Shown one piece after another: positions 6,087-63,436 of a stretch of DNA of 64,000 nt. The translations under genes were made by a program, and so were the position numbers. The DNA lies in the IMG/VR virus record IMGVR_UViG_3300027822_000002. One strand, written 5' to 3'. The notes below the pieces were generated by a model that was given only the letters and a program-made list of their open reading frames with translations, was not told where the DNA came from and searched no databases. Source of the stretch: a virus. Within the stretch, counting starts at the first letter, position 1; the number at the start of each line of letters is the position of its first letter.

Positions 6087-6556
6087 AGATTGATTATTGG
6101 GATGTTGTAGTCCTCGGCTATCCTGAGTCCTTGAGCAGTTCCGCCTTTGTATTCTCCTAGAGGAGTTTTTGGGCACCAACAAATGACAAGATCGGCTGGA
6201 AATTTACAGTCATATCCCAAAATAATATGAGAGTTTCTGGCATGGAGTCTTTTAACTGCCGGCGAGCAACAACCCCATGCTGGATGATATTTCTCTGCAA
6301 TCTTAAAACCATCATCATTTGGATTAGCTACGGTGTAAAGACTATCGTCCCAGTTATTAAATCCTGTCCAAGGAAGAAAAACCGTTCCATTATATCTTAA
6401 CCGAACACCGCTTGCAAAGGCATTGTCAGCTCCATCCGCTCCACCAGTACGTAGCTTCCAACCAGAATCCTCATACTCAGAAGCCATTTGCTTCATTATC
6501 TTAAGGATCCGATCAGGTGTCTGGCGACTGCCAATTCCTGCGTATGTCTTTCTCAT
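6074..6556 (-). CDS. SLOG/DprA-LOG-like Rossmann-fold protein
   Basis: Motifs GIGSRQTP and TGGADGADNAFA resemble the Rossmann-fold families named for DprA (DNA-processing protein A) and LOG (Lonely Guy cytokinin-activating enzyme). Confidence 0.45.
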   Translation of the reverse strand: MRKTYAGIGSRQTPDRILKIMKQMASEYEDSGWKLRTGGADGADNAFASGVRLRYNGTVFLPWTGFNNWDDSLYTVANPNDDGFKIAEKYHPAWGCCSPAVKRLHARNSHIILGYDCKFPADLVICWCPKTPLGEYKGGTAQGLRIAEDYNIPIINLWGL

Positions 6557-6691
6557 CTTTTCTCTCCTTTAAAACCTCAGCAATACACTTTAGGCCACGC
6601 CCAATGTCAGAAAGACCTAAGCCTATAAAAAGGCCAGCAAATAGAAACATCCGAAGGATGTGTATCCTTCTTCTGCTATTCCCCACCCCAT

Positions 6692-7039
6692 TTAATCTCT
6701 CCTTGTTAGTTCTGCCCAAGCCTTGGGAAAATTGTCCTCAACAAATCGATAGAGAGTTTCTATCTCAGCATCACCGTTGTATCTCCTAGCTATAGCCGCA
6801 ATAAGACAATACAACTCTGACTCCAAGCCATCTATCTTGTCTTTAAGGACACCAACATGATCCTCTACAACCTCTACATTGGTTGAATCCATAGTCACTG
6901 TTATGCCATCATGAAACTCAACCTCACAAGCCTTGCCGTCAGCATATACCTCAACAATCATTCCACGGGTGCCAGAAGGAATCATTCCAGCATGATAACC
7001 AACACGATTTTTAGTTTTGACAATGCTGTACAGGTTCAT
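6692..7039 (-). CDS. hypothetical protein
   Basis: ORF. Confidence 0.45.
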   Translation of the reverse strand: MNLYSIVKTKNRVGYHAGMIPSGTRGMIVEVYADGKACEVEFHDGITVTMDSTNVEVVEDHVGVLKDKIDGLESELYCLIAAIARRYNGDAEIETLYRFVEDNFPKAWAELTRRD

Positions 7040-17141: not shown

Positions 17142-18344
17142 ATGCTTTCAGATAAATTGAAGAAGATGGACCCCGCTCTTAAAGACACCTTGAAGGTGGT
17201 TCTGCAAACGGGTGCCAAGGTCAACAACATCGAGGAAGAGGTTGAGGAACTAGAACAGCGAGTGAGAACTGCTGAAGACAACACTGCTAAGGCAAAAGAA
17301 GATTTGAAAGCCAAATCTTTTGCTCCCCTTGTTCTGAATATCGACAAGTCCCTTTCCAAGATTCCCACAGCTGGAGAGTTCCCTGAAGGAAATATGGTCA
17401 CCAAGAAGGCTGCCGAAGTGTTTGGGTTCACGGAACTTGACTTTGATATTCCCTTTTGGGAGTGGAAAACGCCGCATCCTCTAGTCCCCAAAATCGAAGA
17501 GGGGTATGAATTCAACGTTGGACATCTCCGCAGCATTCTCTATGCTCTGGTGTTCAACATTCCACAGTGGTTGGTTGGCCATACCGGAACCGGCAAAACC
17601 ACTCACGTCCTTCAGATCCTTGCAAGAATGAACTGGCCATGTATCCGGGCAAACTTTGATTCCGAGCTGACTCGTATGGAGGTGATCGGCAAAGAAACCC
17701 TCATCACCGATGCTTCAGGAAACACTGTAACAAAGTTCTCTGAAACAATTCTTCCTATGGCAATGCGGCATGGGTTTGTTTTTCTCGGAGATGAGTGGGA
17801 CTGCATCCGACCAGATGTTGCCTATGTCTTCCAGCCCGTTCTTGAGGGTGGAAATCTTGTGATCATGGAAGACAACGCCAGAGTCGTTGAACGGCATCCA
17901 ATGTTCCGCATTGTTGCTACTGGCAACACAAAAGGTCAGGGTGATGAAAGCGGAATCTATAACGGCACTCGTCCCCAATCAGGCGCTTCCATGGATCGCT
18001 TCCCGGTCATGATTGAATTTGACTACATGACCAAAAAAGAGGTTGGCAGCATTCTCAGCAAGAAGTTTGAATCTGTTGATGAGGATGTTGTTGAGAACCT
18101 CACGAAGTTTGCCCACGAATACTGGATCGCATTCCAGAATGCCCAGCTAACTACTCCTCTTACCCTTCGGGGATTGGAGAATGTTCTGGAGATGTACAGG
18201 TTCTTCCGGTCTTCAGGTATGGCAAAGAAAGACTCGATCAGAGTTTCTGTGTTGAATACCTGTGTGTCTAAGGCTAACAAGGTCGAAAACCAAGTCATCA
18301 ATGGCCTTACTGATCGGACAGTTCTGAGTGGAGGTGTGAAGTAA
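17142..18344 (+). CDS. cobS: AAA+ ATPase, CobS/MoxR-like
   Basis: Walker A GHTGTGKTT; Walker B FLGDEWD; followed by a von Willebrand factor A (vWA) gene, as in phage cobS-cobT pairs. Confidence 0.75.
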   Translation: MLSDKLKKMDPALKDTLKVVLQTGAKVNNIEEEVEELEQRVRTAEDNTAKAKEDLKAKSFAPLVLNIDKSLSKIPTAGEFPEGNMVTKKAAEVFGFTELDFDIPFWEWKTPHPLVPKIEEGYEFNVGHLRSILYALVFNIPQWLVGHTGTGKTTHVLQILARMNWPCIRANFDSELTRMEVIGKETLITDASGNTVTKFSETILPMAMRHGFVFLGDEWDCIRPDVAYVFQPVLEGGNLVIMEDNARVVERHPMFRIVATGNTKGQGDESGIYNGTRPQSGASMDRFPVMIEFDYMTKKEVGSILSKKFESVDEDVVENLTKFAHEYWIAFQNAQLTTPLTLRGLENVLEMYRFFRSSGMAKKDSIRVSVLNTCVSKANKVENQVINGLTDRTVLSGGVK

Positions 18345-20119
18345 TGGTGGAGAAAAGCGGTGCTAAGCTCGTTAGCGAGATGGCCGGAACGACTAAAATA
18401 TTTGGTCGAGATGACAAGCTGGCAGTTGTCTTTTCCGGAAAGCGAGCCTCTTCAAAGAAGGGGCTCGTTGTTCTGCCAGATATTTCTGAGACAGAGGTGA
18501 CGCCTAAACAATCAGCGTTGATGCGGGGCTTTGTCGATCAGGAAAGCGGTTATGTCAAACACTCTGATCTCGGAGAAATTGATCGTTTATCGGAGGTTAA
18601 CCCTCTGAAAGCAGCGGTGCTGAAGGGTATTGAGGACGTCAGGATCACTCAAAAGCGGCAGCAAGAATACATGGGATCGAGAAGAAACCTGTCAGAGCTT
18701 TTGAACTCAACGGCCAAGTCCTTCAAGAAAAACTTCAAGGCCGACGAGGATGCAGACTGGAAAGAATCCCTTCCATTTGCCATCTCTCTTTTGGGTAGAG
18801 ACCTCCCCGGTATTGATGCTGATCTCGACGGCATTAGAGAGAAACTACCAGAGGAGACTGTAAAGAAATTCGATGATTTCAGATCGAAAATACAGACTTC
18901 GTCTTCTTTTGAAGAATCTCTGGAGATTGCCAGCGAACTAATTGACACACCAGATGAAGAAAGTGAGAGTGAAGATAGCAAGGGCGAAGGGGACAACGAT
19001 GATGCGGAATCCGAGCGGGGCAAAGAAGCCTACGAAAAAATGACAAAAATGAATTCGGAAGAAATCAACAAACTGGAACTATCTACCGCCGACAATTATG
19101 GCAAAGAAATCTATGATATTGATGAGTTCATCTATGCCTCGGACGCCTATGGCATAACTCCACATGAAAAAATCAAATGCGAAGATGCCATAGGAGCAAT
19201 CAACAACTTCAAAAGGATAAGTTCCTCCGATTATCAAACCGCAGTTACAGGAAAGATATCCTCCGTGGTTATGGTTGCCAAAAAGAAGTTGGAGTATCTT
19301 CTGTTCTCAAAGATAGACAGAAATTGGCTTTCAGCTCAGCCAGAGGGCAGGCTTGACAACAAGAGGGTTGCATCTGTCCCAACTGGGAACAGGCTAGTGT
19401 TCAAAACAAGAGCTCCTCGAAAGGAAGTTGACACTGCTGTTATGGTATTGGTTGATCTCTCAGGATCAATGCATGGGCGTAAAGTTGAAGTTGCTCAACA
19501 ATGTGCGTTGGTTTTCTCAGAATGCCTAAACAAATGTGGAGTGAACTTTTCTATATGTGGGTTTAACGACCCACATGAAGGCTATTATTTCAAAAATGTG
19601 GATGATGTTCACCCATATCATCGAGCAGAACTTGGTGCAAGTAAGTGTGAAGATATGTGCAGAAGCAGAGGTGGAGAAAACAGCATACGCAGCAACATGT
19701 CTTACGACTACAGCTTAGGAAAAACAAGAAGATATCATGCTGGTCATCTTTATGTCTACAAGAGTTTTCAAGACAAATACATTCAAGTCAGAAAGAGTAT
19801 TCTGGCAATGGAACACCATTGCGGGGGCAACAACTATGATTGCTCCGCCCTTCACCATTCCTATCATATGTTGAAGAAGCAACAAGAAAGAAAGAAGGTG
19901 ATGTTTGTTCTTTCGGATGGACAGCCATCGTCTTGGTCAGAGGCTTACCACCCTACAGAAGAAAAGATCAAGGAGATTGAGGCGGATAAGTCTGTCATTT
20001 TGATGGGTATTGGTATCCTCCACAACACTGCTGAGATGTATAAAAATCACACAGTTGTCAAAAGTGTTGATGATTTAGGAAACAGATGTTTTGAAACGTT
20101 AGCAGCACAACTGTCTTAG
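18344..20119 (+). CDS. cobT: vWA-domain protein, CobT-like
   Basis: Metal ion-dependent adhesion site (MIDAS) motif VLVDLSGSM; acidic linker; ATGA overlap with cobS. Confidence 0.65.
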   Translation: MVEKSGAKLVSEMAGTTKIFGRDDKLAVVFSGKRASSKKGLVVLPDISETEVTPKQSALMRGFVDQESGYVKHSDLGEIDRLSEVNPLKAAVLKGIEDVRITQKRQQEYMGSRRNLSELLNSTAKSFKKNFKADEDADWKESLPFAISLLGRDLPGIDADLDGIREKLPEETVKKFDDFRSKIQTSSSFEESLEIASELIDTPDEESESEDSKGEGDNDDAESERGKEAYEKMTKMNSEEINKLELSTADNYGKEIYDIDEFIYASDAYGITPHEKIKCEDAIGAINNFKRISSSDYQTAVTGKISSVVMVAKKKLEYLLFSKIDRNWLSAQPEGRLDNKRVASVPTGNRLVFKTRAPRKEVDTAVMVLVDLSGSMHGRKVEVAQQCALVFSECLNKCGVNFSICGFNDPHEGYYFKNVDDVHPYHRAELGASKCEDMCRSRGGENSIRSNMSYDYSLGKTRRYHAGHLYVYKSFQDKYIQVRKSILAMEHHCGGNNYDCSALHHSYHMLKKQQERKKVMFVLSDGQPSSWSEAYHPTEEKIKEIEADKSVILMGIGILHNTAEMYKNHTVVKSVDDLGNRCFETLAAQLS

Positions 20120-33682: not shown

Positions 33683-34396
33683 TTGTCACAACCCTCACTC
33701 CCCAAAGGTGCCAATGTGAAGATCGGAATATTAAGCGATCTCCATCTTGAGTTTGGGGGTCCAACAAAAATGCCAAATAATGATGCAGATATATATATCA
33801 TTGCTGGCGATATCCATCCTAACGACAACAAAAGAGAAAAATATATCAAGAGGTTAGAGGAAGATGGTAAGCCAGTCTTTCATATTATGGGCAATCATGA
33901 CCATTGGTATAGTCAGTTTCCTTCTCCTAACGAAACAATTCGATCCGCTTATCTGGGTGGGGATAATGGTGGGGTTAGTATTGCTGGCGCAACTCTCTGG
34001 ACTGATATGTCTGGCCCCTTAGATTGGCTTGATTATGTTGAGTATCTAAATGATGCTGTGAGAATGAAGGGGGCAGATCAGGATTCTATGCAGGAAACTC
34101 ACAAGGTTCACAGGGAGTTTCTCTTTAACTCTGGGGCCGATATTATTGTTAGTCATCATGCTCCTTCATACATGTCTGTTTCTAGTAGATTCAGAGGCGA
34201 TGCCGCCAACAAGTTTTTCTGTACTGAATTTCATGAACGCATTATGAATATGGATAATCCGCCTAAACTGTGGATACATGGACATATCCATGAGAAAAAA
34301 GATTATATGATCGGAGATACCAGAGTGATATGTAACCCATGGGGATACGGAATGTATGAAGTACATGAAAGAGGTTTAATTGTGATTGAGGTTTGA
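33683..34396 (+). CDS. calcineurin-like metallophosphoesterase
   Basis: Motifs IIAGDIH, GNHDHW and HGHIH. Confidence 0.65.
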   Translation: MSQPSLPKGANVKIGILSDLHLEFGGPTKMPNNDADIYIIAGDIHPNDNKREKYIKRLEEDGKPVFHIMGNHDHWYSQFPSPNETIRSAYLGGDNGGVSIAGATLWTDMSGPLDWLDYVEYLNDAVRMKGADQDSMQETHKVHREFLFNSGADIIVSHHAPSYMSVSSRFRGDAANKFFCTEFHERIMNMDNPPKLWIHGHIHEKKDYMIGDTRVICNPWGYGMYEVHERGLIVIEV

Positions 34397-34873
34397 TTGG
34401 CAATCTCAAGATCAGAACAGCTTAAAGAACTTTTACCGGGCTTGAATGAGCTTTTTGGAAATAAAATGACAGGGGTTCCATATAGCATTCTTCCTTATTC
34501 GAAAAGGGGCTATTTCCATAAAAAGAGCAGAATAATGCCGTTAGAATATTACATACTTGATGAAAACAAAGAACTTATTCCTGCCACCTCTTCAGAGTGG
34601 GCTGTTTGGTTTGAAGATTTTGACAATCGTCGCGTGAATGAGACCTTTTTTGAAGAAAAGGAAATCAGAGTCTCAACAGTTTGTTTGGGTATGGATCATT
34701 CTTGGGGACACGGTGGCCCAACGTTTTTTGAAACGATGATCTTTGGTGATGGTTTTGAGGGTGATAATGAATATCAAACCAGATGCGGAACTTGGGAAGA
34801 AGCGGAAGTAATGCATAAAGCAGCCTGTGAGGTGGTTAGCTTTAAACTATATGGTCATAAACATGAGGGGTGA
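34397..34873 (+). CDS. hypothetical protein whose N-terminal 21 aa mimic the MCP N-terminus (TTG start)
   Basis: MAISRSEQLKELLPGLNELFG here versus MAISRAQQLKELLPGLNALFG at the start of 62528..63436. Confidence 0.45.
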   Translation: MAISRSEQLKELLPGLNELFGNKMTGVPYSILPYSKRGYFHKKSRIMPLEYYILDENKELIPATSSEWAVWFEDFDNRRVNETFFEEKEIRVSTVCLGMDHSWGHGGPTFFETMIFGDGFEGDNEYQTRCGTWEEAEVMHKAACEVVSFKLYGHKHEG

Positions 34874-35345: not shown

Positions 35346-35783
35346 ATGCCAAGAAAAATAAAAGTTGACCGACGTGGATTTATGGGCCTTATGGGAGGTG
35401 CTGCGGTTGCTGGTAAGGGTGCCCTTAAGAGCGCAGCAACAAAGGTGGCGGGAATTGGGGTTCCGGGTTTGTATCCGCCAACTAAAAGTCCTGATCTGAG
35501 GGGCGAATCATATGAAGTTGCCGAAGAACATCGACTAGAATATGTAAAAAAATTGGCTGGGGTTCTTCCAAGATGGAAAGAGAGAGAATTCGAAAGATGG
35601 TCCAAGAATGTCTACACCATTGATCCAGACATATATGCATTGAAATCGATGTCTTTAACACGAATGGTACAGGCTCAGAGAAAGAGAAACTTTGAGAACA
35701 TGAAGAAAGATTTCTTCAATGAACCGATTTTTGCGGATGAAAGGAAGAAGTTCCTTAGCAAAATAAGTCTTGGCTGGCTGTGA
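35346..35783 (+). CDS. hypothetical protein
   Basis: ORF. Confidence 0.4.
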   Translation: MPRKIKVDRRGFMGLMGGAAVAGKGALKSAATKVAGIGVPGLYPPTKSPDLRGESYEVAEEHRLEYVKKLAGVLPRWKEREFERWSKNVYTIDPDIYALKSMSLTRMVQAQRKRNFENMKKDFFNEPIFADERKKFLSKISLGWL

Positions 35784-36262
35784 ATATAAAGATCAAATGC
35801 CCCGAATGTGACAAAAGGTTTGAGCGACTTCTTGATGTCGATCAGCATTTTGCCGAGAAACATCCAGTAACTGCAATGTACAAGGATAAACCTTATAGGG
35901 GCAAACTTGTCGGGAAAAAGCTTGTAGAGCTAGTTGCTGAGCTTAGGGAGCGTGAAGGCCATATGTGTTTCTTTTGTGGGCACTTTGTGCCCATGAACTC
36001 CCGCAATGATTTGTGCCGTCCTACTGTCGAGCATTTGTTAAGTCGTTCCCACGGTGGAACCAACCATTCAACTAACACAGTTCTGGCTCACAAAGTCTGC
36101 AATAAGATTGCCGGTAACCTCTCAATCAGAGATAAGGTTCTCCTAAGAGACGCTCTCCGACGTAATCCTCCTAAAGAAGTTCTATGTTATTGTAGTGGCT
36201 TCTTTAACAGATTGAGGTTGTGGTTTGATGGTAGTGAATACAGGAATGGCAGCAAGCCCTAG
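35780..36262 (+). CDS. HNH endonuclease with N-terminal C2H2-like zinc finger
   Basis: CPECDKRFERLLDVDQHFAEKH, then HNH-type histidine/asparagine residues around HLLSRSHGGTNHSTN and VLAHKVCN. Confidence 0.65.
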   Translation: MNIKIKCPECDKRFERLLDVDQHFAEKHPVTAMYKDKPYRGKLVGKKLVELVAELREREGHMCFFCGHFVPMNSRNDLCRPTVEHLLSRSHGGTNHSTNTVLAHKVCNKIAGNLSIRDKVLLRDALRRNPPKEVLCYCSGFFNRLRLWFDGSEYRNGSKP

Positions 36263-36499: not shown

Positions 36500-39400
36500 T
36501 TACTGGAAAAGAACTTCGTTCGTTGCATTAGTTATCACTCTCATCAGGTCCATTTTCTGCTTTTTATACTTTGATAGTAATGACCTTTTCTGCGTGGCAT
36601 TCATGTTAGGGTCAGCCCTTACTTTGTTTATCTGTTTGTTTATTTGGGAGAGCTGTCTAGATGTTCTATCTATTCTCTTCCTAAGCATTAATTTACCACG
36701 ATTTTCTTCGATGAGCTTTTGAGCTTCTTGAACTCTACCTCTGGTTGTTAACTCCTTAATGGTCATATGCAGTTCGGTTATTTCTTCTTTCATCTCATAG
36801 AAGTCTTCAGCAAACCGAGTTCCCCGCTCATCATCTGCCCTAACAAACCTGCTAAGCCCTGCAATCTGCCCCATCCAAGCTTGCCCACCGATAACAGAAG
36901 CATCCCCAAATAGTCCTGCTGGTTTGGACGGAACAGTACCAGTCATCTGTATTACAGAATCAGCAAAGGCTAGAAGCATCATAGACATGCTGCCTCCGTA
37001 GCCTTGGGCTAAATGCTCTAACATCAGAGGGCTGGTTCCTGTGGCCTCGCCCACCATTTTCGCAACATCGGTTGTTGAAGGCGTTGACCTCAAACCGGGA
37101 GCTAGGCGGCGAGCAGCTTGATTTTCAATCGGTCTTCCCAAGAACATATCAAAGTTAGTTAGAGCCTCAATGATGGGCTTTGCTGCCTGCGGAATGGGAT
37201 TAAGTTGGAAGGTGTTGGCTAGGATAGAGATAGTTCCTTTACCAAGATCGTCCGTCTCTCCTGTCCTCATTGCGTCAAGAGCCAGAACAGGCATTGCTCC
37301 AAAAGCAGCACCAATCTCGAATGAACGCGGGAGATAGAAGGTTTTGTCCCCAACATAGAATATGTCATAGTTGAGCTTTCTATCTAGCCGTTCTTCATCC
37401 CACCTGTCATCAAGTTGAGATATTCCATATATGGCACTATGAATACCAGCCAATAGAAGACCTTTAGTCATAAGGCCATGGGCAACCCCCAGAGTGTTGC
37501 CTGACTTCTCATTTTCCATCAAGCGATACAAGCCTTGAATACGGGCATTCAAAAACGGGATCATAGGAATGAGGTTCATCAACACCATGGGGATACCGGT
37601 ACCGCCAGACCCTCGACGAGAATAGTTGATGATATTCATACCCTGATAATCAGCTTCAAGTTTAGGCGTCCCAGCCTCCTGTAAATAGGTAGACACCGCT
37701 AAACGTTGAGCAAGCTCTGTAGCCTCGCCTATCTTGGTTAAGCCGTCCCACATCCCGCTGAGGCCATCAAAGAAGGCTCTGGAAGCCCCACCAGCGTACT
37801 CCCCCCTACGACGGGCCTCTTTACGCATTCCACGTTTCATCTTCTTAGAGAACGCCGAGAGATCACTGAGAGCACCCCTGTTCACATTACCAACATCAAA
37901 TCCCCCCATACCGGTATTGGCTTTGAATGCCATCACTTCATCTGTACCTCTGTAAACGTCTGACAAATATCCCAGTGTCTTGATGAATGACCTAACGGGT
38001 GGAATTTTATGCTTTACATAAGCATCAATATGCCCCCTCCATAGGTTGGCGAGCATGAATGCGGGGCTGTGAGTGATACCTTGTCGGAGAATAGCTGCTG
38101 GCTTGGAAAGCAGATTGATAAAACTACTAACTTGAGTTTTGTTCATTGAGGTGATGGCAACCCAAAGATCGTTGTCTTTGATCTTGTATTTAATCTCTTC
38201 ATTGCCCCTCCGGAAGGTCATAATAGACCCGCCCTTCTCATCCGCTGATCTCCTTACCTTAGACCCATATAGGTCACGTGTTCCAGCCTGATCATTGAGG
38301 GCATCGAGGGTAGTTGCGACTTGTTTGAGCGCTCTATTAGATAGAGACGCCCTAACAATACCCTCGATGTTTTTTCTTATCATGTCGATGGGATCATTGT
38401 CTAAAGGCTGATCGCCACCAAGCAATTCAATCGAGAACGGATTTGGATTGTTCAAAGACTGTAGAAATTTGTTAGACCAAGTCGCTCCAATATATGCCTG
38501 ATTTTCTACATCAACCTCCAGTTTTCTGTAGAAGGGAATGTAATCAAAGTTAAGTAGTTCGTCAGCTTTCTCTCTACTTATTACTTCACTCTCTACTGCG
38601 AAGTCAATAATATTACTGTTTAGCTTCTGGTACTTCTCAAATGCTCTTTCAAACTTCTGCGGAGCTGCTGCTAGAACTTCATTGATCTTCTCGTTGCTGA
38701 TCTTGAATAGCTTTGCCCCAGCATTATTCTCTCGATGAGATTTTTCTCTTCTAGCAATGCCATATATCTGGAAGAGCTGGTCTTCAGTGATCTGACGTCC
38801 ATTGAACTCGTGGGCGGTTTGAGGGTTTATTTCCTCAAAGACCTCAGCCAGAGAGGGGGCGTCTTCATCGATAGTGATATTGCCCTCCTCGTCATACTTA
38901 AGGCCACCCTTCTCAATGATTGCCTGAATGCGACCAGCCATTTGCGTGGCAAGCTCAAGCATCTTTCCCGCTGAGTCCTTGGCCATCGGGATGCCGGAGT
39001 TGCCTAAAGCAGCCTGCAATGCGCGGTCTTCTTTAAAGGCCCCCATCTGTTTGTGGGCAATGTTTCTAACCATCACATTACTGAGAGCCTGCCGACCCTC
39101 TTTAGTTGTGAGGTCCATCTGTGGGTCAAGATCGTCAGCTCCAATCAAGCCCCGCATCAATCTATTAATAGAGCCCCTAAATCCAAGCTCACCCTCTGGC
39201 GCAAGCGCCCGCGCAGCTACCTCAGCGATGGGTCCAGCATCATAATCCGGAAGCCTATAGCCACTTAGCCTATTTAGGGGGGCTTGACTGAATATTCTCT
39301 TGGATTGTTTTTCTGGATCAAGGGCGATCCACTTACCATCTGGATACGCAACTCCATCAAAACCTGCCCCACCAATCTCTTCTTTCGTTGTCTCCTGTCC

Positions 39401-42400
39401 AGCGGCAGCAAGGAAGGGGTTCTTAATCGAGAGATACTCTCCCCCAATGTCTAAGGGGAGCCCATTACCATCAACAACCTGAGAACCCTCAAACCATTCA
39501 GTAAATTCTTTTATGTCAGTTCCAGTTCTTATGGCATAACCCGAGAATCTTGCGTCGGCTGCGGTGCCGGGATCAAATTGATTGAAGATTGACTTGATTT
39601 GATGCGGATAAAACGCCACAATCTCATCTGCCTGACGATCCATCGTCTGGGCGATAACTCCATCATATCCCAATTCTTTTAGGAGCTTTGTTGCAGCTTT
39701 AACACTGATATTTCTCTTCTGGTTGAAATCATCGTATTCAAACTTGGGGTCAGGGGCAGTATTTTGGACAAGTTCAACCGCCCTGTCAGATTTTTCAGGA
39801 TGTCTCCTCCTGACAAGGGACATAAGGTTTGCCGCGTCTAAGTTACTTACAATAAAGGGATTTTTTATAGACAGCATTGTCGGGATGATCCGGTTTTGCT
39901 CCGCAAATGCACCACCAACCTCCGGTGAGTCATAGGGGGTAGCATAAGAAGACGCTGTTGTAGGACTTGGGGTGAAATAATGACCCTCCCCATACCATCC
40001 ATAATCAATCTTCCTATCTGGACTGACCTCAAACTGGTCAAATTCTTGCCCTTTTGTGCCATGAAACATGACAAGAGGATCGCCATCAGGAGTAATGACG
40101 TAGCTACCGTCAAACCATTTAATGAACTCTATCCAGTTTTCTTGCGGAGGTTTTGTTCTTGTGATAACTGGCTCAATGAAGACCCCGTCTATAAGAAAGC
40201 CCTTACGCTCTCTGCTTTTCTCATCTCCAAAGGTATCCGGCCTATCGGCCTCTAAGTCCTCTATTGAGTCTTGGGCAATAGCCTGCCCGATAGCAGCGTC
40301 AGCATAATCTTGCTCAGTGTTTGCAGTGTTGTAGTAGTCATCAATGATTGCGTCGTATTCTGCCTGAGATAGAACATTGCCCTCTTCATCGAGAGCGTCT
40401 CCGGTATTCGGATCAAACCTGACACCAGAAAATCTAGTGCCAGCTCCAGCAATTGCAGGACTGCGGGCACCTACCTGACCACTCTCAATAAGGCCAAATA
40501 CCTCACCAGCTCTCTGGTCTTGTGAGATTGGAAGTAGCTTCCTGAAGAAATCAAGTATCTTCCTGAAGACGTTTCTTTGTGCGGGGCGAGCCTTAAATCT
40601 TTCTGGACGCCTTCCGTATTCTTCGAATAAAGCCGCAACCGCTTCTTCATCTATAAGAGTCTGATAATTATCTCTTCCTCTGTATGTGTCTTTGTATTGA
40701 AGCTCCGCACCATCCATAAAGGATAAATCTTTGTAACCCTGCATGGGCATTCTGCGAGCCGCTTCAACCAGTTGACCCCATTCCTTGGTTGAGATAAGGT
40801 TCATCATCTTCATAGCATGTAGGGCCTCATGCTTTGCAGTAGAGATGATGGTATCAATAGCTTCCTTGTCGCCCACAGCAGCAGGCATTTCAGTAGCAAG
40901 ACGCATCATCACCCCAAGATTGGGATCAGTATATGTTTCACCCCGAGCTACAATATTTGCTCGCCTGTCTTGAATGAAGCTTTGAAACTTGACCTTAACC
41001 TTATCGTCTAGGTTAAAGTCTGCCAGCAACTTATTAACTTTACCGACTATTTCCCTTGACTCATCGATAGATTTTGCGGGGGCAAGATCAATATCCGGCC
41101 CGATCTCATCTTGAAGGGTACGGCGGTATCTGATTGCCTCTTCCATCGTGGGGAAGGTTTGATCAACGGTTTCGCTAAGCTTGTTCCCAAAGGCATCAAA
41201 ACTTTCTTCAACAACCGCAAACCCAAACTCCCCTTCTGAAGCCTGTTCAATCTCAAACTCTCTATCTGGCTTCTTCTTTCTGAGATCATTAACAAGAACC
41301 TCAGCCTGTTCTCTAGACATGGGCTTACCACGTTTCTTGCCTGTCTTGAGATCAATGATCCTGAAGGTTGGCTCCGCACCTTTCTTATAAATCTCCTTGG
41401 CATGAAAAACCTTACCAGCAGTGTCTGGGTGGAGAAGCTGTTTCTTTATTGTCTCTTCATTAAAGTTCGTTGGTTCCTCAAAGGAAAAATCTCTACCTTT
41501 GATGGCCACGCTCTTATTGATATTCTTCTGGGATGTCCTGCGGATAGTGCGGAGTTCTCTAAGCCTCTCCTTATCCTTTTCAGTTTTACTATCCTTCTCC
41601 TCGATGGCCTCGATTTTCTTGTTAAGCGGTTCAATTGTGCTTGAGTAAAGAGACCGCTTTCTCTCATTGCGTCGTAGAAGTGCCTGTCTAAAGTCAGGGG
41701 AAATATCGCTAGATTCAATGACCGCCTTAGCCTCATCGAATTCTCCTCTAGTTTCAAGTTGTCCTGCTGCTTTTGAGGATTTAACTCTCCTGTCTAACTC
41801 CTGTGTATTTTCGACCCAATCGTTTGCCTCCTTCTCCGTTTTGAATCCGGCTCTGTATTGATTTCCTGTCTCTTCACCGACAACAATGAAGCCCTTGCTT
41901 GGCCTGCGAACCTCCTTGCGGGTGCCTGCATCTTCACCCCTTTCTCCATACGAGAATTGGCCTCTATCTGCAACAATCTTAACTGACTCTTGCGGGGCTC
42001 TTTGATCGGGATCAAGCGGGTCTGCGCGATCAAGTGATTCATCTGACAGTGAGAGAACAAGCTCATCTGTCGGAACATTATCAAGAGTTGCCGTTCTGTC
42101 TTGAGTCTGAATCTCTTCAATAGTCTTCCCAAGTGATAACGCTTCTCTCTGACCACGCTTAGTAAACTCCTTCTCTTCTCTTGCTCTATTTCTGGCTTTA
42201 AAGAAATCTTGACTTCCGCCAAGGGTTCCGCCGACAGCCCCACCTAATGCTGCTCCCAATATGGCTGAGTTGATCAGCTCGTCCGCCACTTCTGGAGATA
42301 GCTCGAAAAGTTTTTCAGGATCAGCCTGAACAATTTCAAGAGCTTGCTGACCAGCTTCTGTAAATCCTTCAATAGCTCCCGAGGTAACAGCGTTCTTTGC

Positions 42401-43090
42401 AAATATGGGGATGGCCTTAGTTGTCGATCCGGCTGCCCTAGACATGACCTTACCAACACCGGGGGCAGCCACATTAATCAAACTTTCTAATGCAGCCTGT
42501 CCACTGGCAGCTGCTGCGGCATCTCCAAGTCTTACGTCCTCAAGAGAAACGCCGTTCTCTTGCATTTGCCTCTCAACATTACCACCAACAAAAAATGGGA
42601 ACGTGAAGAGAGCGCCACCAGCAGCACCGGCAACAGCAGCGGGAATAGCAGCAGGAGCAGCAGCAACAGCCGCACCACCAGCACCCAATGTACCAAGAAG
42701 ATAGGGAGCACTTTGAGCCGCCCCTTCGTAGAGATAGGATGCGGCCTCTCCGACAGAACCAACATCTTTATACGAAGTTACAGTCGGTTGAAATCCGGAT
42801 GCAGCCAAGCGATTAGCTTCAGCAGATTCCATTAAGCTCTTTTCAGTGTCAGCTAGCCCAAGACGGTTAGCGGCTGCTCCCAAGGCTGTTTGGAAGTCAG
42901 CTTGCATCCTATCAATGCCAGCAGCGAAAGGCCCTTGCTCGGGCACTTGAGGTTCGACAGGAGGTTGTTCAACCGGTTCTTCCTGTAAGCCCATTAGAGC
43001 TTGAGCAGTATCAGGTCTGAATTTTTCGAAGACACCCTGATTACTAACGATGTCCTGCAATTGAGATTGAGAAAGCTTAGAGAGGTCCAT
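36500..43090 (-). CDS. 2196 aa multi-domain virion/ejection protein
   Basis: N-terminal Gly/Ala-rich TM region. HEALH zincin motif (aa 753-757). ART H-Y-E signature FHGTKG...YGWYGEGHYF (aa 1009-1040) plus a degenerate repeat of it. Confidence 0.8.
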   Translation of the reverse strand: MDLSKLSQSQLQDIVSNQGVFEKFRPDTAQALMGLQEEPVEQPPVEPQVPEQGPFAAGIDRMQADFQTALGAAANRLGLADTEKSLMESAEANRLAASGFQPTVTSYKDVGSVGEAASYLYEGAAQSAPYLLGTLGAGGAAVAAAPAAIPAAVAGAAGGALFTFPFFVGGNVERQMQENGVSLEDVRLGDAAAAASGQAALESLINVAAPGVGKVMSRAAGSTTKAIPIFAKNAVTSGAIEGFTEAGQQALEIVQADPEKLFELSPEVADELINSAILGAALGGAVGGTLGGSQDFFKARNRAREEKEFTKRGQREALSLGKTIEEIQTQDRTATLDNVPTDELVLSLSDESLDRADPLDPDQRAPQESVKIVADRGQFSYGERGEDAGTRKEVRRPSKGFIVVGEETGNQYRAGFKTEKEANDWVENTQELDRRVKSSKAAGQLETRGEFDEAKAVIESSDISPDFRQALLRRNERKRSLYSSTIEPLNKKIEAIEEKDSKTEKDKERLRELRTIRRTSQKNINKSVAIKGRDFSFEEPTNFNEETIKKQLLHPDTAGKVFHAKEIYKKGAEPTFRIIDLKTGKKRGKPMSREQAEVLVNDLRKKKPDREFEIEQASEGEFGFAVVEESFDAFGNKLSETVDQTFPTMEEAIRYRRTLQDEIGPDIDLAPAKSIDESREIVGKVNKLLADFNLDDKVKVKFQSFIQDRRANIVARGETYTDPNLGVMMRLATEMPAAVGDKEAIDTIISTAKHEALHAMKMMNLISTKEWGQLVEAARRMPMQGYKDLSFMDGAELQYKDTYRGRDNYQTLIDEEAVAALFEEYGRRPERFKARPAQRNVFRKILDFFRKLLPISQDQRAGEVFGLIESGQVGARSPAIAGAGTRFSGVRFDPNTGDALDEEGNVLSQAEYDAIIDDYYNTANTEQDYADAAIGQAIAQDSIEDLEADRPDTFGDEKSRERKGFLIDGVFIEPVITRTKPPQENWIEFIKWFDGSYVITPDGDPLVMFHGTKGQEFDQFEVSPDRKIDYGWYGEGHYFTPSPTTASSYATPYDSPEVGGAFAEQNRIIPTMLSIKNPFIVSNLDAANLMSLVRRRHPEKSDRAVELVQNTAPDPKFEYDDFNQKRNISVKAATKLLKELGYDGVIAQTMDRQADEIVAFYPHQIKSIFNQFDPGTAADARFSGYAIRTGTDIKEFTEWFEGSQVVDGNGLPLDIGGEYLSIKNPFLAAAGQETTKEEIGGAGFDGVAYPDGKWIALDPEKQSKRIFSQAPLNRLSGYRLPDYDAGPIAEVAARALAPEGELGFRGSINRLMRGLIGADDLDPQMDLTTKEGRQALSNVMVRNIAHKQMGAFKEDRALQAALGNSGIPMAKDSAGKMLELATQMAGRIQAIIEKGGLKYDEEGNITIDEDAPSLAEVFEEINPQTAHEFNGRQITEDQLFQIYGIARREKSHRENNAGAKLFKISNEKINEVLAAAPQKFERAFEKYQKLNSNIIDFAVESEVISREKADELLNFDYIPFYRKLEVDVENQAYIGATWSNKFLQSLNNPNPFSIELLGGDQPLDNDPIDMIRKNIEGIVRASLSNRALKQVATTLDALNDQAGTRDLYGSKVRRSADEKGGSIMTFRRGNEEIKYKIKDNDLWVAITSMNKTQVSSFINLLSKPAAILRQGITHSPAFMLANLWRGHIDAYVKHKIPPVRSFIKTLGYLSDVYRGTDEVMAFKANTGMGGFDVGNVNRGALSDLSAFSKKMKRGMRKEARRRGEYAGGASRAFFDGLSGMWDGLTKIGEATELAQRLAVSTYLQEAGTPKLEADYQGMNIINYSRRGSGGTGIPMVLMNLIPMIPFLNARIQGLYRLMENEKSGNTLGVAHGLMTKGLLLAGIHSAIYGISQLDDRWDEERLDRKLNYDIFYVGDKTFYLPRSFEIGAAFGAMPVLALDAMRTGETDDLGKGTISILANTFQLNPIPQAAKPIIEALTNFDMFLGRPIENQAARRLAPGLRSTPSTTDVAKMVGEATGTSPLMLEHLAQGYGGSMSMMLLAFADSVIQMTGTVPSKPAGLFGDASVIGGQAWMGQIAGLSRFVRADDERGTRFAEDFYEMKEEITELHMTIKELTTRGRVQEAQKLIEENRGKLMLRKRIDRTSRQLSQINKQINKVRADPNMNATQKRSLLSKYKKQKMDLMRVITNATNEVLFQ

Positions 43091-62527: not shown

Positions 62528-63436
62528 TTAAGCGGCGCCTGTAGACGCATACATTGCCAGTGGGTCACTAAAGCCAAAGCTATAGCGCTCACGAGCTTTG
62601 TACCTTGCATTACCCGTATCAAAATCTCCGTCCATCGAAGTGGACAGTGCAATACGGCTAAATTGCTTAGCACCATTCGGGCAGTCAGTCTTTACAAACC
62701 AAGCATCCGTGTCAGTGAGGTAGTGATTGATGCACCATCCTCTAGGAATAGCTTGATTGTTGCGGAGAGCGTTGATATCGTTATCCGCTGTCGCTACCCT
62801 CAGATCGGATTCAAGAATCCGAGTAGCAACAAACTGAAGAGCCGAAGGGACAATCAGTTTTACTGGACGAGCTGCAATCAAAAGACCGCGTTCATCCGTC
62901 CATGCGGCAATATCAATGACTGCCTGTTCAAGAGAAGTCTCGTTCAGATCAGCCGCAACTGCGGGGATGTTTGAGTTAGTACCACCACTCACAAGTGGAT
63001 GCGCAGCATTGAACAGACTTACACCATCGCCAGTGTTGTAAGAAGTGAACCCGTTATTCAGAGGGAACGCTGCTTTAACCTGTTTGGTGTATGCCACAGC
63101 TCTAGCAAGGGCCTTGGTATAACGCGAGGAGAGACTCTCATACAGGTTATCTTCCATTGCTTCTTCAGTAATGGAGAATCCCATAGCAATTGTCTCATGC
63201 GTATACCGAGCGGTCCATGCTTCCTGAGCATCATCATACTTGATCGCTTCGCCCTCCGGCTTGACTGGAGCAGCTGCAAAGCCTGAGAGCTTCACCTCCT
63301 CTTCAAAGCTACGCTCTGAAGTTTCCATGTCATAAATCTCTTTATGCTCGTTTTCATAAGCCTTATATTCCAGACCGAAAAGAGCGTTGAGACCGGGGAG
63401 CAGTTCTTTTAACTGTTGAGCACGACTAATAGCCAT
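62528..63436 (-). CDS. major capsid protein
   Basis: Size, composition and strong downstream terminator fit an HK97-like capsid protein. Confidence 0.5.
   Translation of the reverse strand: MAISRAQQLKELLPGLNALFGLEYKAYENEHKEIYDMETSERSFEEEVKLSGFAAAPVKPEGEAIKYDDAQEAWTARYTHETIAMGFSITEEAMEDNLYESLSSRYTKALARAVAYTKQVKAAFPLNNGFTSYNTGDGVSLFNAAHPLVSGGTNSNIPAVAADLNETSLEQAVIDIAAWTDERGLLIAARPVKLIVPSALQFVATRILESDLRVATADNDINALRNNQAIPRGWCINHYLTDTDAWFVKTDCPNGAKQFSRIALSTSMDGDFDTGNARYKARERYSFGFSDPLAMYASTGAA

Follow-up and report, generated by a model that had tools for sequence, protein, structure and literature searches.

We found that an open reading frame (ORF) of a phage genome opens with a peptide copied from the N-terminus (21 residues) of the major capsid protein (MCP) of the same phage, and that this short peptide is carried by at least ten unrelated families of small proteins in aquatic, as yet uncultured relatives with this type of MCP. 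The genome was read from a stretch of 64 000 nt, called the window below (IMG/VR virus record IMGVR_UViG_3300027822_000002). Judged from sequence comparison, the peptide looks like a selected, movable binding tag, very probably a functional interaction module common to the MCP and to the proteins that carry it. As to what this module may do, the reading that we favor, with a probability of roughly 0.45, is that the tag is a portable copy of the N-terminal arm (N-arm) of the MCP and docks its carriers on the partner of this arm, thus acting as a cargo-loading or capsid-targeting label.

Match between the tagged ORF and the major capsid protein

The tagged ORF (34397..34873, plus strand; TTG start, 158 aa) and the MCP gene (62528..63436, minus strand; 302 aa, with matches to Pfam Phage_capsid_4 and Mu-like_gpT) are situated in one genome. 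An initial annotation, made from the sequence alone, had described this ORF and the likeness of the two N-termini; its coordinates and sequence were re-read and are correct. The product of the ORF starts with MAISRSEQLKELLPGLNELFG; the tag itself, (M/L)AISRSEQLKELLPGLNELFG, is encoded by the TTG and the following 20 codons (34397..34459, plus strand), while the original, MAISRAQQLKELLPGLNALFG, is encoded by the first 21 MCP codons (63374..63436, minus strand). The two peptides are identical at 18 of 21 residues, as the annotation had stated, and the two DNA segments at 38 of 63 nt. By codon position, the identities are 13/21, 19/21 and 6/21 for the first, second and third positions, respectively. 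Leaving the start aside, 17 residues are identical, and 13 of these are written with different codons.

This match is far beyond chance. The ungapped BLOSUM62 score of the 20-mers is 85, to be compared with 27 ± 3 for the best match in 100 shuffled windows (maximum, 35); in a tblastn search of the MCP against the window the tag segment alone had E = 1.3e-5. The next-best real match in all six frames of the window scored only 24–29, so the window contains exactly two copies of the peptide. Likeness to the MCP spans the interval from the start-codon position to codon 21 and then ends; past codon 21 no longer or frameshifted MCP remnant was found in any frame. The remainders of the two proteins are unrelated, again as annotated, and the regions upstream of the ORF and of the MCP gene turned out to be unrelated as well.

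The tag is followed in the ORF by a linker (residues 22–46, NKMTGVPYSILPYSKRGYFHKKSRI; 34460..34534, plus strand), which has an in-frame ATG inside it (Met24, 34466, plus strand), and by a globular domain (residues 47–158; 34535..34873 including the stop codon, plus strand), delimited by alignment of homologues and by an AF2 model. In the model of the 158-aa protein, a helix is predicted with low confidence at residues 5–20, residues 19–45 appear disordered (pLDDT <50), and residues 48–155 form a confident alpha/beta domain (pLDDT >90); the predicted architecture is thus tag, flexible linker and domain.

The domain belongs to a widespread phage family of ∼100 aa proteins with an FETMIFG motif, the canonical start of which corresponds to Met47 (ATG at 34535, plus strand). 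All 170 homologues listed for the domain align from Met47, the non-identical ones down to E = 1.8e-21, and 169 of these 170 have neither the MCP-like peptide nor the linker. Columns W68, S93, T94, V95, H101, F111, E112, M114, F116, R129, A136 and H140 (window numbering) are invariant in the family alignment; H101, E112 and H140, together with the nearly invariant C130, have the look of a possible metal site. The domain had no match in Pfam, PHROG or NCBIfam, and comparison with PDB folds gave no convincing structural relative of known function.

The initial annotation had proposed shared recognition of the two N-termini and had reasoned that the idea would fall if the peptide were not conserved in homologues. 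The 169 listed homologues of the domain do lack it, but on other carriers the peptide is conserved, and its absence from the domain family therefore does not refute the idea. As for relatives of the window protein as a whole, a search by synteny with the upstream metallophosphoesterase gene in IMG/VR gave none, a search with residues 22–158 gave one distant locus only, and an exhaustive representative search with residues 1–50 returned only an identical protein (P0001), for which no encoding contig was found. A tagged gene next to an FETMIFG gene, a conceivable source of the fusion, was looked for in relatives, and no such neighbor was seen.

The N-terminus of the capsid protein

The window MCP shows 73% identity to its counterpart in Planktothrix phage Pag-Yong1 and 61–64% identity to those of Pelagibacter phages HTVC023P and HTVC027P; clustered at 90% identity, the family as a whole comprises >8000 clusters. 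Residues 1–24 hardly vary among 101 distinct MCP genes, with the consensus MAISR[AS]Q[LQMA]LKELLPGLNALFG[LM]EY, and dN/dS for codons 2–21 is as low as 0.035. The Phage_capsid_4 match covers MCP residues 41–297, and the tag segment (residues 1–21) lies N-terminal to it. The region preceding the capsid core of an HK97-type MCP is presumably the N-arm; from the Pfam boundaries and this general knowledge of the fold we infer that the peptide corresponds to the N-arm. The AF2 model of the MCP, built from a shallow alignment, had pLDDT of 34, and sequence and profile searches of the PDB yielded no solved homologue.

Selection on the tag and a tag-specific signature

For codons 2–21, comparison between tag families gave pS = 0.89 and pN = 0.16; comparison of the window tag with the 101 MCPs gave practically the same values, pS = 0.90 and pN = 0.15. 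Synonymous sites are saturated with respect to every MCP or tag sampled, in line with the annotation's remark that the two copies are no recent nucleotide repeat. Its further suggestion, protein-level selection on the peptide, is borne out by the gap between pS (∼0.9) and pN (∼0.15) and by the recurrence of the peptide on many unrelated proteins. When the 63 nt of the window tag were compared with 80 + 21 MCP 5′ ends, the best match was 47/63 nt and no recent MCP donor was identified; these sequences also exclude gene conversion by the MCP gene of the phage itself. Residues R5, K10, E11, L12, L13, P14, G15, N17 and F20 are invariant in tags and MCPs alike.

Two other positions separate the tags from the MCPs. 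Position 7 is Q in 101 of 101 MCPs, while in a scan not conditioned on this position E or D was found in 10 of 13 non-MCP loci against 0 of 10 MCP loci (hypergeometric p = 2.5e-4). Position 18 is A in 91 of 101 MCPs, while most tags have E, K or Q there. At both positions the window tag shows the tag-class state (E7 and E18). Its Q8, on the other hand, is unique among tags, and among MCPs it defines a subclade to which the window's own MCP belongs; Q7E and A18E are the sole differences between the window tag and those MCPs of this subclade that start with 'MAISRSQQ...' ('MAISRSQQLKELLPGLNALFG'). Two histories would fit these sequences: the window tag may have come from an MCP of its own clade and then converged on the tag-class states, or it may be co-evolving with the MCP of its own phage. 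Either history would imply selection on the tag as a tag. The window copy ends at G21, and the x-E-Y of residues 22–24, present in nearly all other tags and in all MCPs, is missing; it may therefore be a weakened copy.

Carriers of the peptide

The peptide was searched for in IMG/VR and in a collection of 5.8 billion proteins. A degenerate DNA pattern for ELLPGLNELFG (the E18 variant) matched 23 IMG/VR loci, 10 of which were MCPs with E18; the other 13 were ORFs of 53–97 aa in which the peptide came first and unrelated sequence followed. Another pattern, in which position 7 had to be E or D, matched 29 loci, none of them an MCP. In a protein search with two tag variants there were 608 matches. 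The best 120 of these 608 were all 29–82 aa long, and among these 120 the ones with Q7/A18 were fragments of MCPs cut by contig ends or sequencing adapters, while the ones with E/D7 were genuine small tagged proteins, some of them on contigs of 52–67 kb. MCP N-termini fused to translated sequencing adapters (public protein entries P0122, P0123, P0192, P0213, P0215 and P0233, ending in ...IGRAHV, ...SYTHLTLPTKRIV or ...EEHTSELQSH) are assembly artefacts and are easily mistaken for tagged mini-proteins.

The sequences joined to the peptide ('tails') fall into at least 10 unrelated families, and the phages that encode the carriers have an MCP of this family and are related to HTVC023P and Pag-Yong1. 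Many tagged proteins scarcely exceed the length of the tag (53–60 aa). No significant similarity between the tails and the MCP was found by a shuffle test, and a Pfam search with ten tagged proteins gave nothing significant. For tail family A, a continuation of MCP homology to ∼60 residues was considered and rejected (shuffle test z ≤1.5).

In three further families the peptide, here roughly its residues 3–24, is located near the C-terminus, behind a domain of 65–110 residues, and is not preceded by a start codon. The module is thus not tied to one position in a protein, and this position independence speaks against any mechanism for which the N-terminus must be free. A small domain ahead of a C-terminal tag resembles a helix-turn-helix by eye, an assignment that Pfam does not support.

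The nine cultured, deposited relatives have the MCP copy only and no tagged gene; the module is thus dispensable. Among 185 579 species genomes that were scanned, one match was found, on a 4.9 kb MAG contig. Apart from the window, no complete genome was obtained in which a tagged gene is paired with the MCP.

Genome context of the tagged genes

In the four tail families for which the context was read, and in the window, the tagged gene is always in a replication module. In families G, C and A, it comes just after a PDDEXK_1 nuclease gene, abutting or overlapping the end of this gene in families G and C and separated from it by one small gene in family A; the replication module of these three families encodes DNA polymerase A, an SNF2 helicase and a DUF927 primase and converges on a giant LPD38 gene. 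In family F, the tagged gene is two genes upstream of the polymerase gene. Two phages have directly after the tagged gene a gene for a conserved, very basic protein of ∼100 aa (L125, 1890–2213; L128, 10158–10439; ...RMERQRARRA.DK.G.D..G...D...H...).

The tagged ORF of the window is at the end of a plus-strand block that converges on the structural genes. This block encodes an adjacent cobaltochelatase-like pair, AAA_5 (dynein-related ATPase) and CobT/VWA (17142–20119, plus strand), an ERF recombinase, a PDDEXK_14 nuclease, a metallophosphoesterase (33683..34396, plus strand; Pfam Metallophos, E = 5e-12) and an HNH endonuclease (35780–36262, plus strand), the last gene before the convergent structural genes. 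The tagged gene follows the phosphoesterase gene and is 1.6 kb from the convergent gene of a giant polyvalent protein (36500–43090, minus strand; 2196 aa, with ART-PolyVal at residues 1002–1170 and LPD38 at residues 1894–2052), a place comparable to that in the other families. In relatives, the giant protein has 2062–2637 aa and in some cases an SLT lytic transglycosylase domain in addition. The label 'early region', given to the ORF by the initial annotation, seems reasonable from the position of the gene in the plus-strand replication block.

Proposed function and its alternatives

The scheme that we propose is as follows. Phages of this MCP family would fuse a peptide copied from the N-arm of their HK97-type MCP to the N- or C-terminal end of small accessory proteins, many of them unrelated to one another; in the window the tag would be translated from the TTG at 34397 and joined to the domain by a flexible linker of ∼25 residues. 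The tag would fold into the same amphipathic helix-turn-helix as the N-arm of the MCP and take the site of this arm, which is most probably on the capsid-binding end of the scaffolding protein or else on a neighboring capsid subunit; the carrier would thereby be tethered to assembling procapsids. In procapsids of 80alpha (PMC5644958) and of SPP1 (PMC6813328), scaffolding protein binds to the MCP at the N-terminal helix, so a free-standing copy of this helix should dock on the same partner. A label for cargo or targeting would fit with how diverse the carriers are, with the predicted tether architecture, with the position independence of the tag, and with positions 18 and 22, which vary, look exposed and are one helical turn apart. 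The location in replication modules fits a regulator or a decoy at least as well as it fits packaged cargo.

Within this proposal, one could speculate about a checkpoint: procapsids would capture tagged regulators or inhibitors and switch the infection from replication to packaging. Regulators encoded in the replication module, including the DNA-binding-looking ones tagged at the C-terminus, would then be sequestered, or packaged and exported, as heads assemble; one might liken this to the export of FlgM, which reports completion of the flagellar hook. We regard the checkpoint as unlikely; a weaker form, in which the tag serves as a general address by which effectors of diverse kinds are loaded into capsids for co-injection, is more probable.

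The tag could also bind the partner of the N-arm in order to regulate assembly rather than to package the carrier. N-arm mimics made in the middle phase of infection would occupy the scaffold (or the MCP) and time, limit or bias capsid assembly; in a variant of this idea they would interfere with co-infecting relatives, as CpmB of SaPI1 competes with the 80alpha scaffold. CpmB, a small protein that copies an assembly motif and competes through it, is a precedent (PMC5644958). Such modulation would agree with the nearness of tagged genes to genes for a PDDEXK nuclease, DNA polymerase and SNF2 helicase, in view of which expression probably occurs before, or independently of, that of the late head genes; it would agree as well with the many carriers scarcely longer than the tag, and affinity could be adjusted through the charge changes that recur at positions 7 and 18. 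However, a pure competitor would need neither ten or more different folded or charged tails nor a confident domain of 110 residues on a flexible tether; moreover, the window tag matches the phage's own MCP, including Q8, and so would poison the phage's own assembly. We consider this explanation possible though not probable.

A different doubt concerns the window gene itself, in which translation might start at the ATG at 34535 (or at 34466). The 138 nt upstream would then be a relic without a role, left by a once-separate tagged mini-gene or a captured fragment and open in frame by accident. The other 169 listed members of the domain family do start at the Met47 position, no relative was found that conserves the fusion of tag, linker and domain, the window tag lacks the conserved E23-Y24, and the start codon in question is TTG rather than ATG. 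The codon statistics are divided: the in-frame codon-usage score of the tag codons is 0.25, typical of genes, and that of the linker codons is 0.0, which is ambiguous. Still, a relic should hardly have kept 18 of 21 residues and all nine invariant positions while its synonymous sites became saturated (≤47/63 nt), nor should it show the tag-class states E7 and E18; also, the frame is open for 46 codons through tag and linker, and the other two frames are full of stops. The annotation had itself cautioned that the TTG may be unused. Among the three candidate starts (TTG 34397, ATG 34466 and ATG 34535), it is the TTG that has the best Shine-Dalgarno sequence, a GAGGT read at 34388..34392 (plus strand), 4 nt ahead of it, and the JGI gene call for the identical protein P0001 starts at the same TTG. 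A relic is thus an unlikely explanation of the window copy.

The phosphoesterase ORF and the tagged ORF are in one reading frame, separated solely by the TGA at 34394–34396, which abuts the TTG; read-through of this TGA would yield a three-part fusion. We considered read-through and do not favor it: the tagged genes of relatives overlap the gene ahead of them, and do so in another frame, and the same-frame arrangement in the window is therefore probably coincidental. A scan for promoters and terminators around the tagged ORF gave nothing beyond expectation.

Less likely still, in our judgment, the peptide could be an exapted oligomerisation helix, leucine-rich and amphipathic, that dimerises or multimerises its carriers, such as the C-terminally tagged proteins that look DNA-binding, and has no link to the capsid left. 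The leucines do have helical spacing, the peptide occurs C-terminal to a small domain that looks by eye like a helix-turn-helix, and the N-arms of SPP1 pair antiparallel with each other across capsomers (PMC6813328). A generic helix, however, would drift, whereas R5, K10, E11, P14, G15 and N17 are invariant and identical to those of the MCP; invariant polar and structural residues in all carriers indicate a shared, conserved partner. In addition, the helix-turn-helix assignment has no backing from Pfam. Finally, mimics with E7/E18 might be immune decoys that bind a host sensor of the MCP N-terminus without activating it, which we hold to be highly improbable: the probable expression ahead of the MCP and the systematic substitutions at two positions are circumstantial, neither a defence gene nor a sensor is implicated, cellular genomes have no tags apart from the one match on a MAG contig, and the diversity of tails would stay unexplained.

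Relation to known systems

Terminal peptides that target proteins to capsids have already been described in encapsulins and in a small number of model phages. Cargo-loading peptides of encapsulins are short, N- or C-terminal, equipped with flexible linkers, and tether diverse cargo inside a shell of the HK97 fold. The predicted tag-linker-domain layout of the window protein is of the same kind, and in other carriers the tag may be at either terminus. Unlike the tag, encapsulin peptides are not known to be copies of a segment of the shell protein, and encapsulins are cellular compartments, not virions. In 80alpha, the capsid and scaffold proteins share an N-terminal motif that is cleaved by the host protease Prp and thus have a common recognition partner; the motif mimics ribosomal protein L27 and needs a free N-terminal context. 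The tag, by contrast, is also found internally, and its carriers are small non-structural proteins.

In the account of PMC9024508, which cites Mullaney and Black (1996), the capsid targeting sequence (CTS) of the T4 internal proteins IPI, IPII and IPIII is enough to load foreign proteins into the head. The tag resembles the CTS in being short, conserved and terminal and in occurring on small phage proteins that otherwise differ widely. The CTS, however, is no copy of the MCP N-terminus and is removed by the prohead protease, while the tag is the MCP N-terminus and has C-terminal copies too, and packaging of its carriers is what we propose. Similarly, both DarB of P1 and a heterologous reporter are directed into the capsid by the ∼30 N-terminal residues of DarB (PMC9024508). 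The Dar proteins of P1 have no consensus among themselves or with the P1 MCP, whereas here a near-invariant peptide is common to the carriers and the MCP. The CpmB protein of SaPI1, small and equipped with a copied capsid-assembly motif, sits at a site that involves the N-arm helix of the MCP (PMC5644958). It mimics the end of the scaffold and the tag mimics the arm of the MCP; it is a single family encoded by a satellite, while the tag is present on many families, with tagged genes inside phage replication modules and on contigs that also encode the giant LPD38 protein.

We found no published description of a tag that copies the capsid protein's own N-arm and recurs on accessory proteins of many unrelated kinds; a full-text literature search for the peptide sequence likewise found no paper. 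If the tag does load cargo, very abundant phages would have a hidden set of packaged or co-injected effectors, and a handle of 21–27 residues would be available for loading proteins into HK97-type capsids; if it regulates assembly instead, it would represent a new kind of self-mimicry.

Head genes in relatives

The window ends just upstream of the MCP gene, and its head module is cut off there. In Pag-Yong1 (L124) a Cpn10/GroES homologue (6501–6881) is encoded between the portal and a putative scaffold of 295 aa, which suggests chaperonin-dependent folding of the capsid protein in this group; no protease Pfam domain was detected in this head module from portal to MCP. The closest relative of the window MCP (93% identity) is accompanied by a gene for a trypsin-like protease (L153, 3412–4266) two genes downstream of the MCP gene, a place where the window has no counterpart. 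In some relatives (L161, L165), though not in others, a gene resembling GIY-YIG/NUMOD3 homing endonucleases comes directly after the MCP gene.
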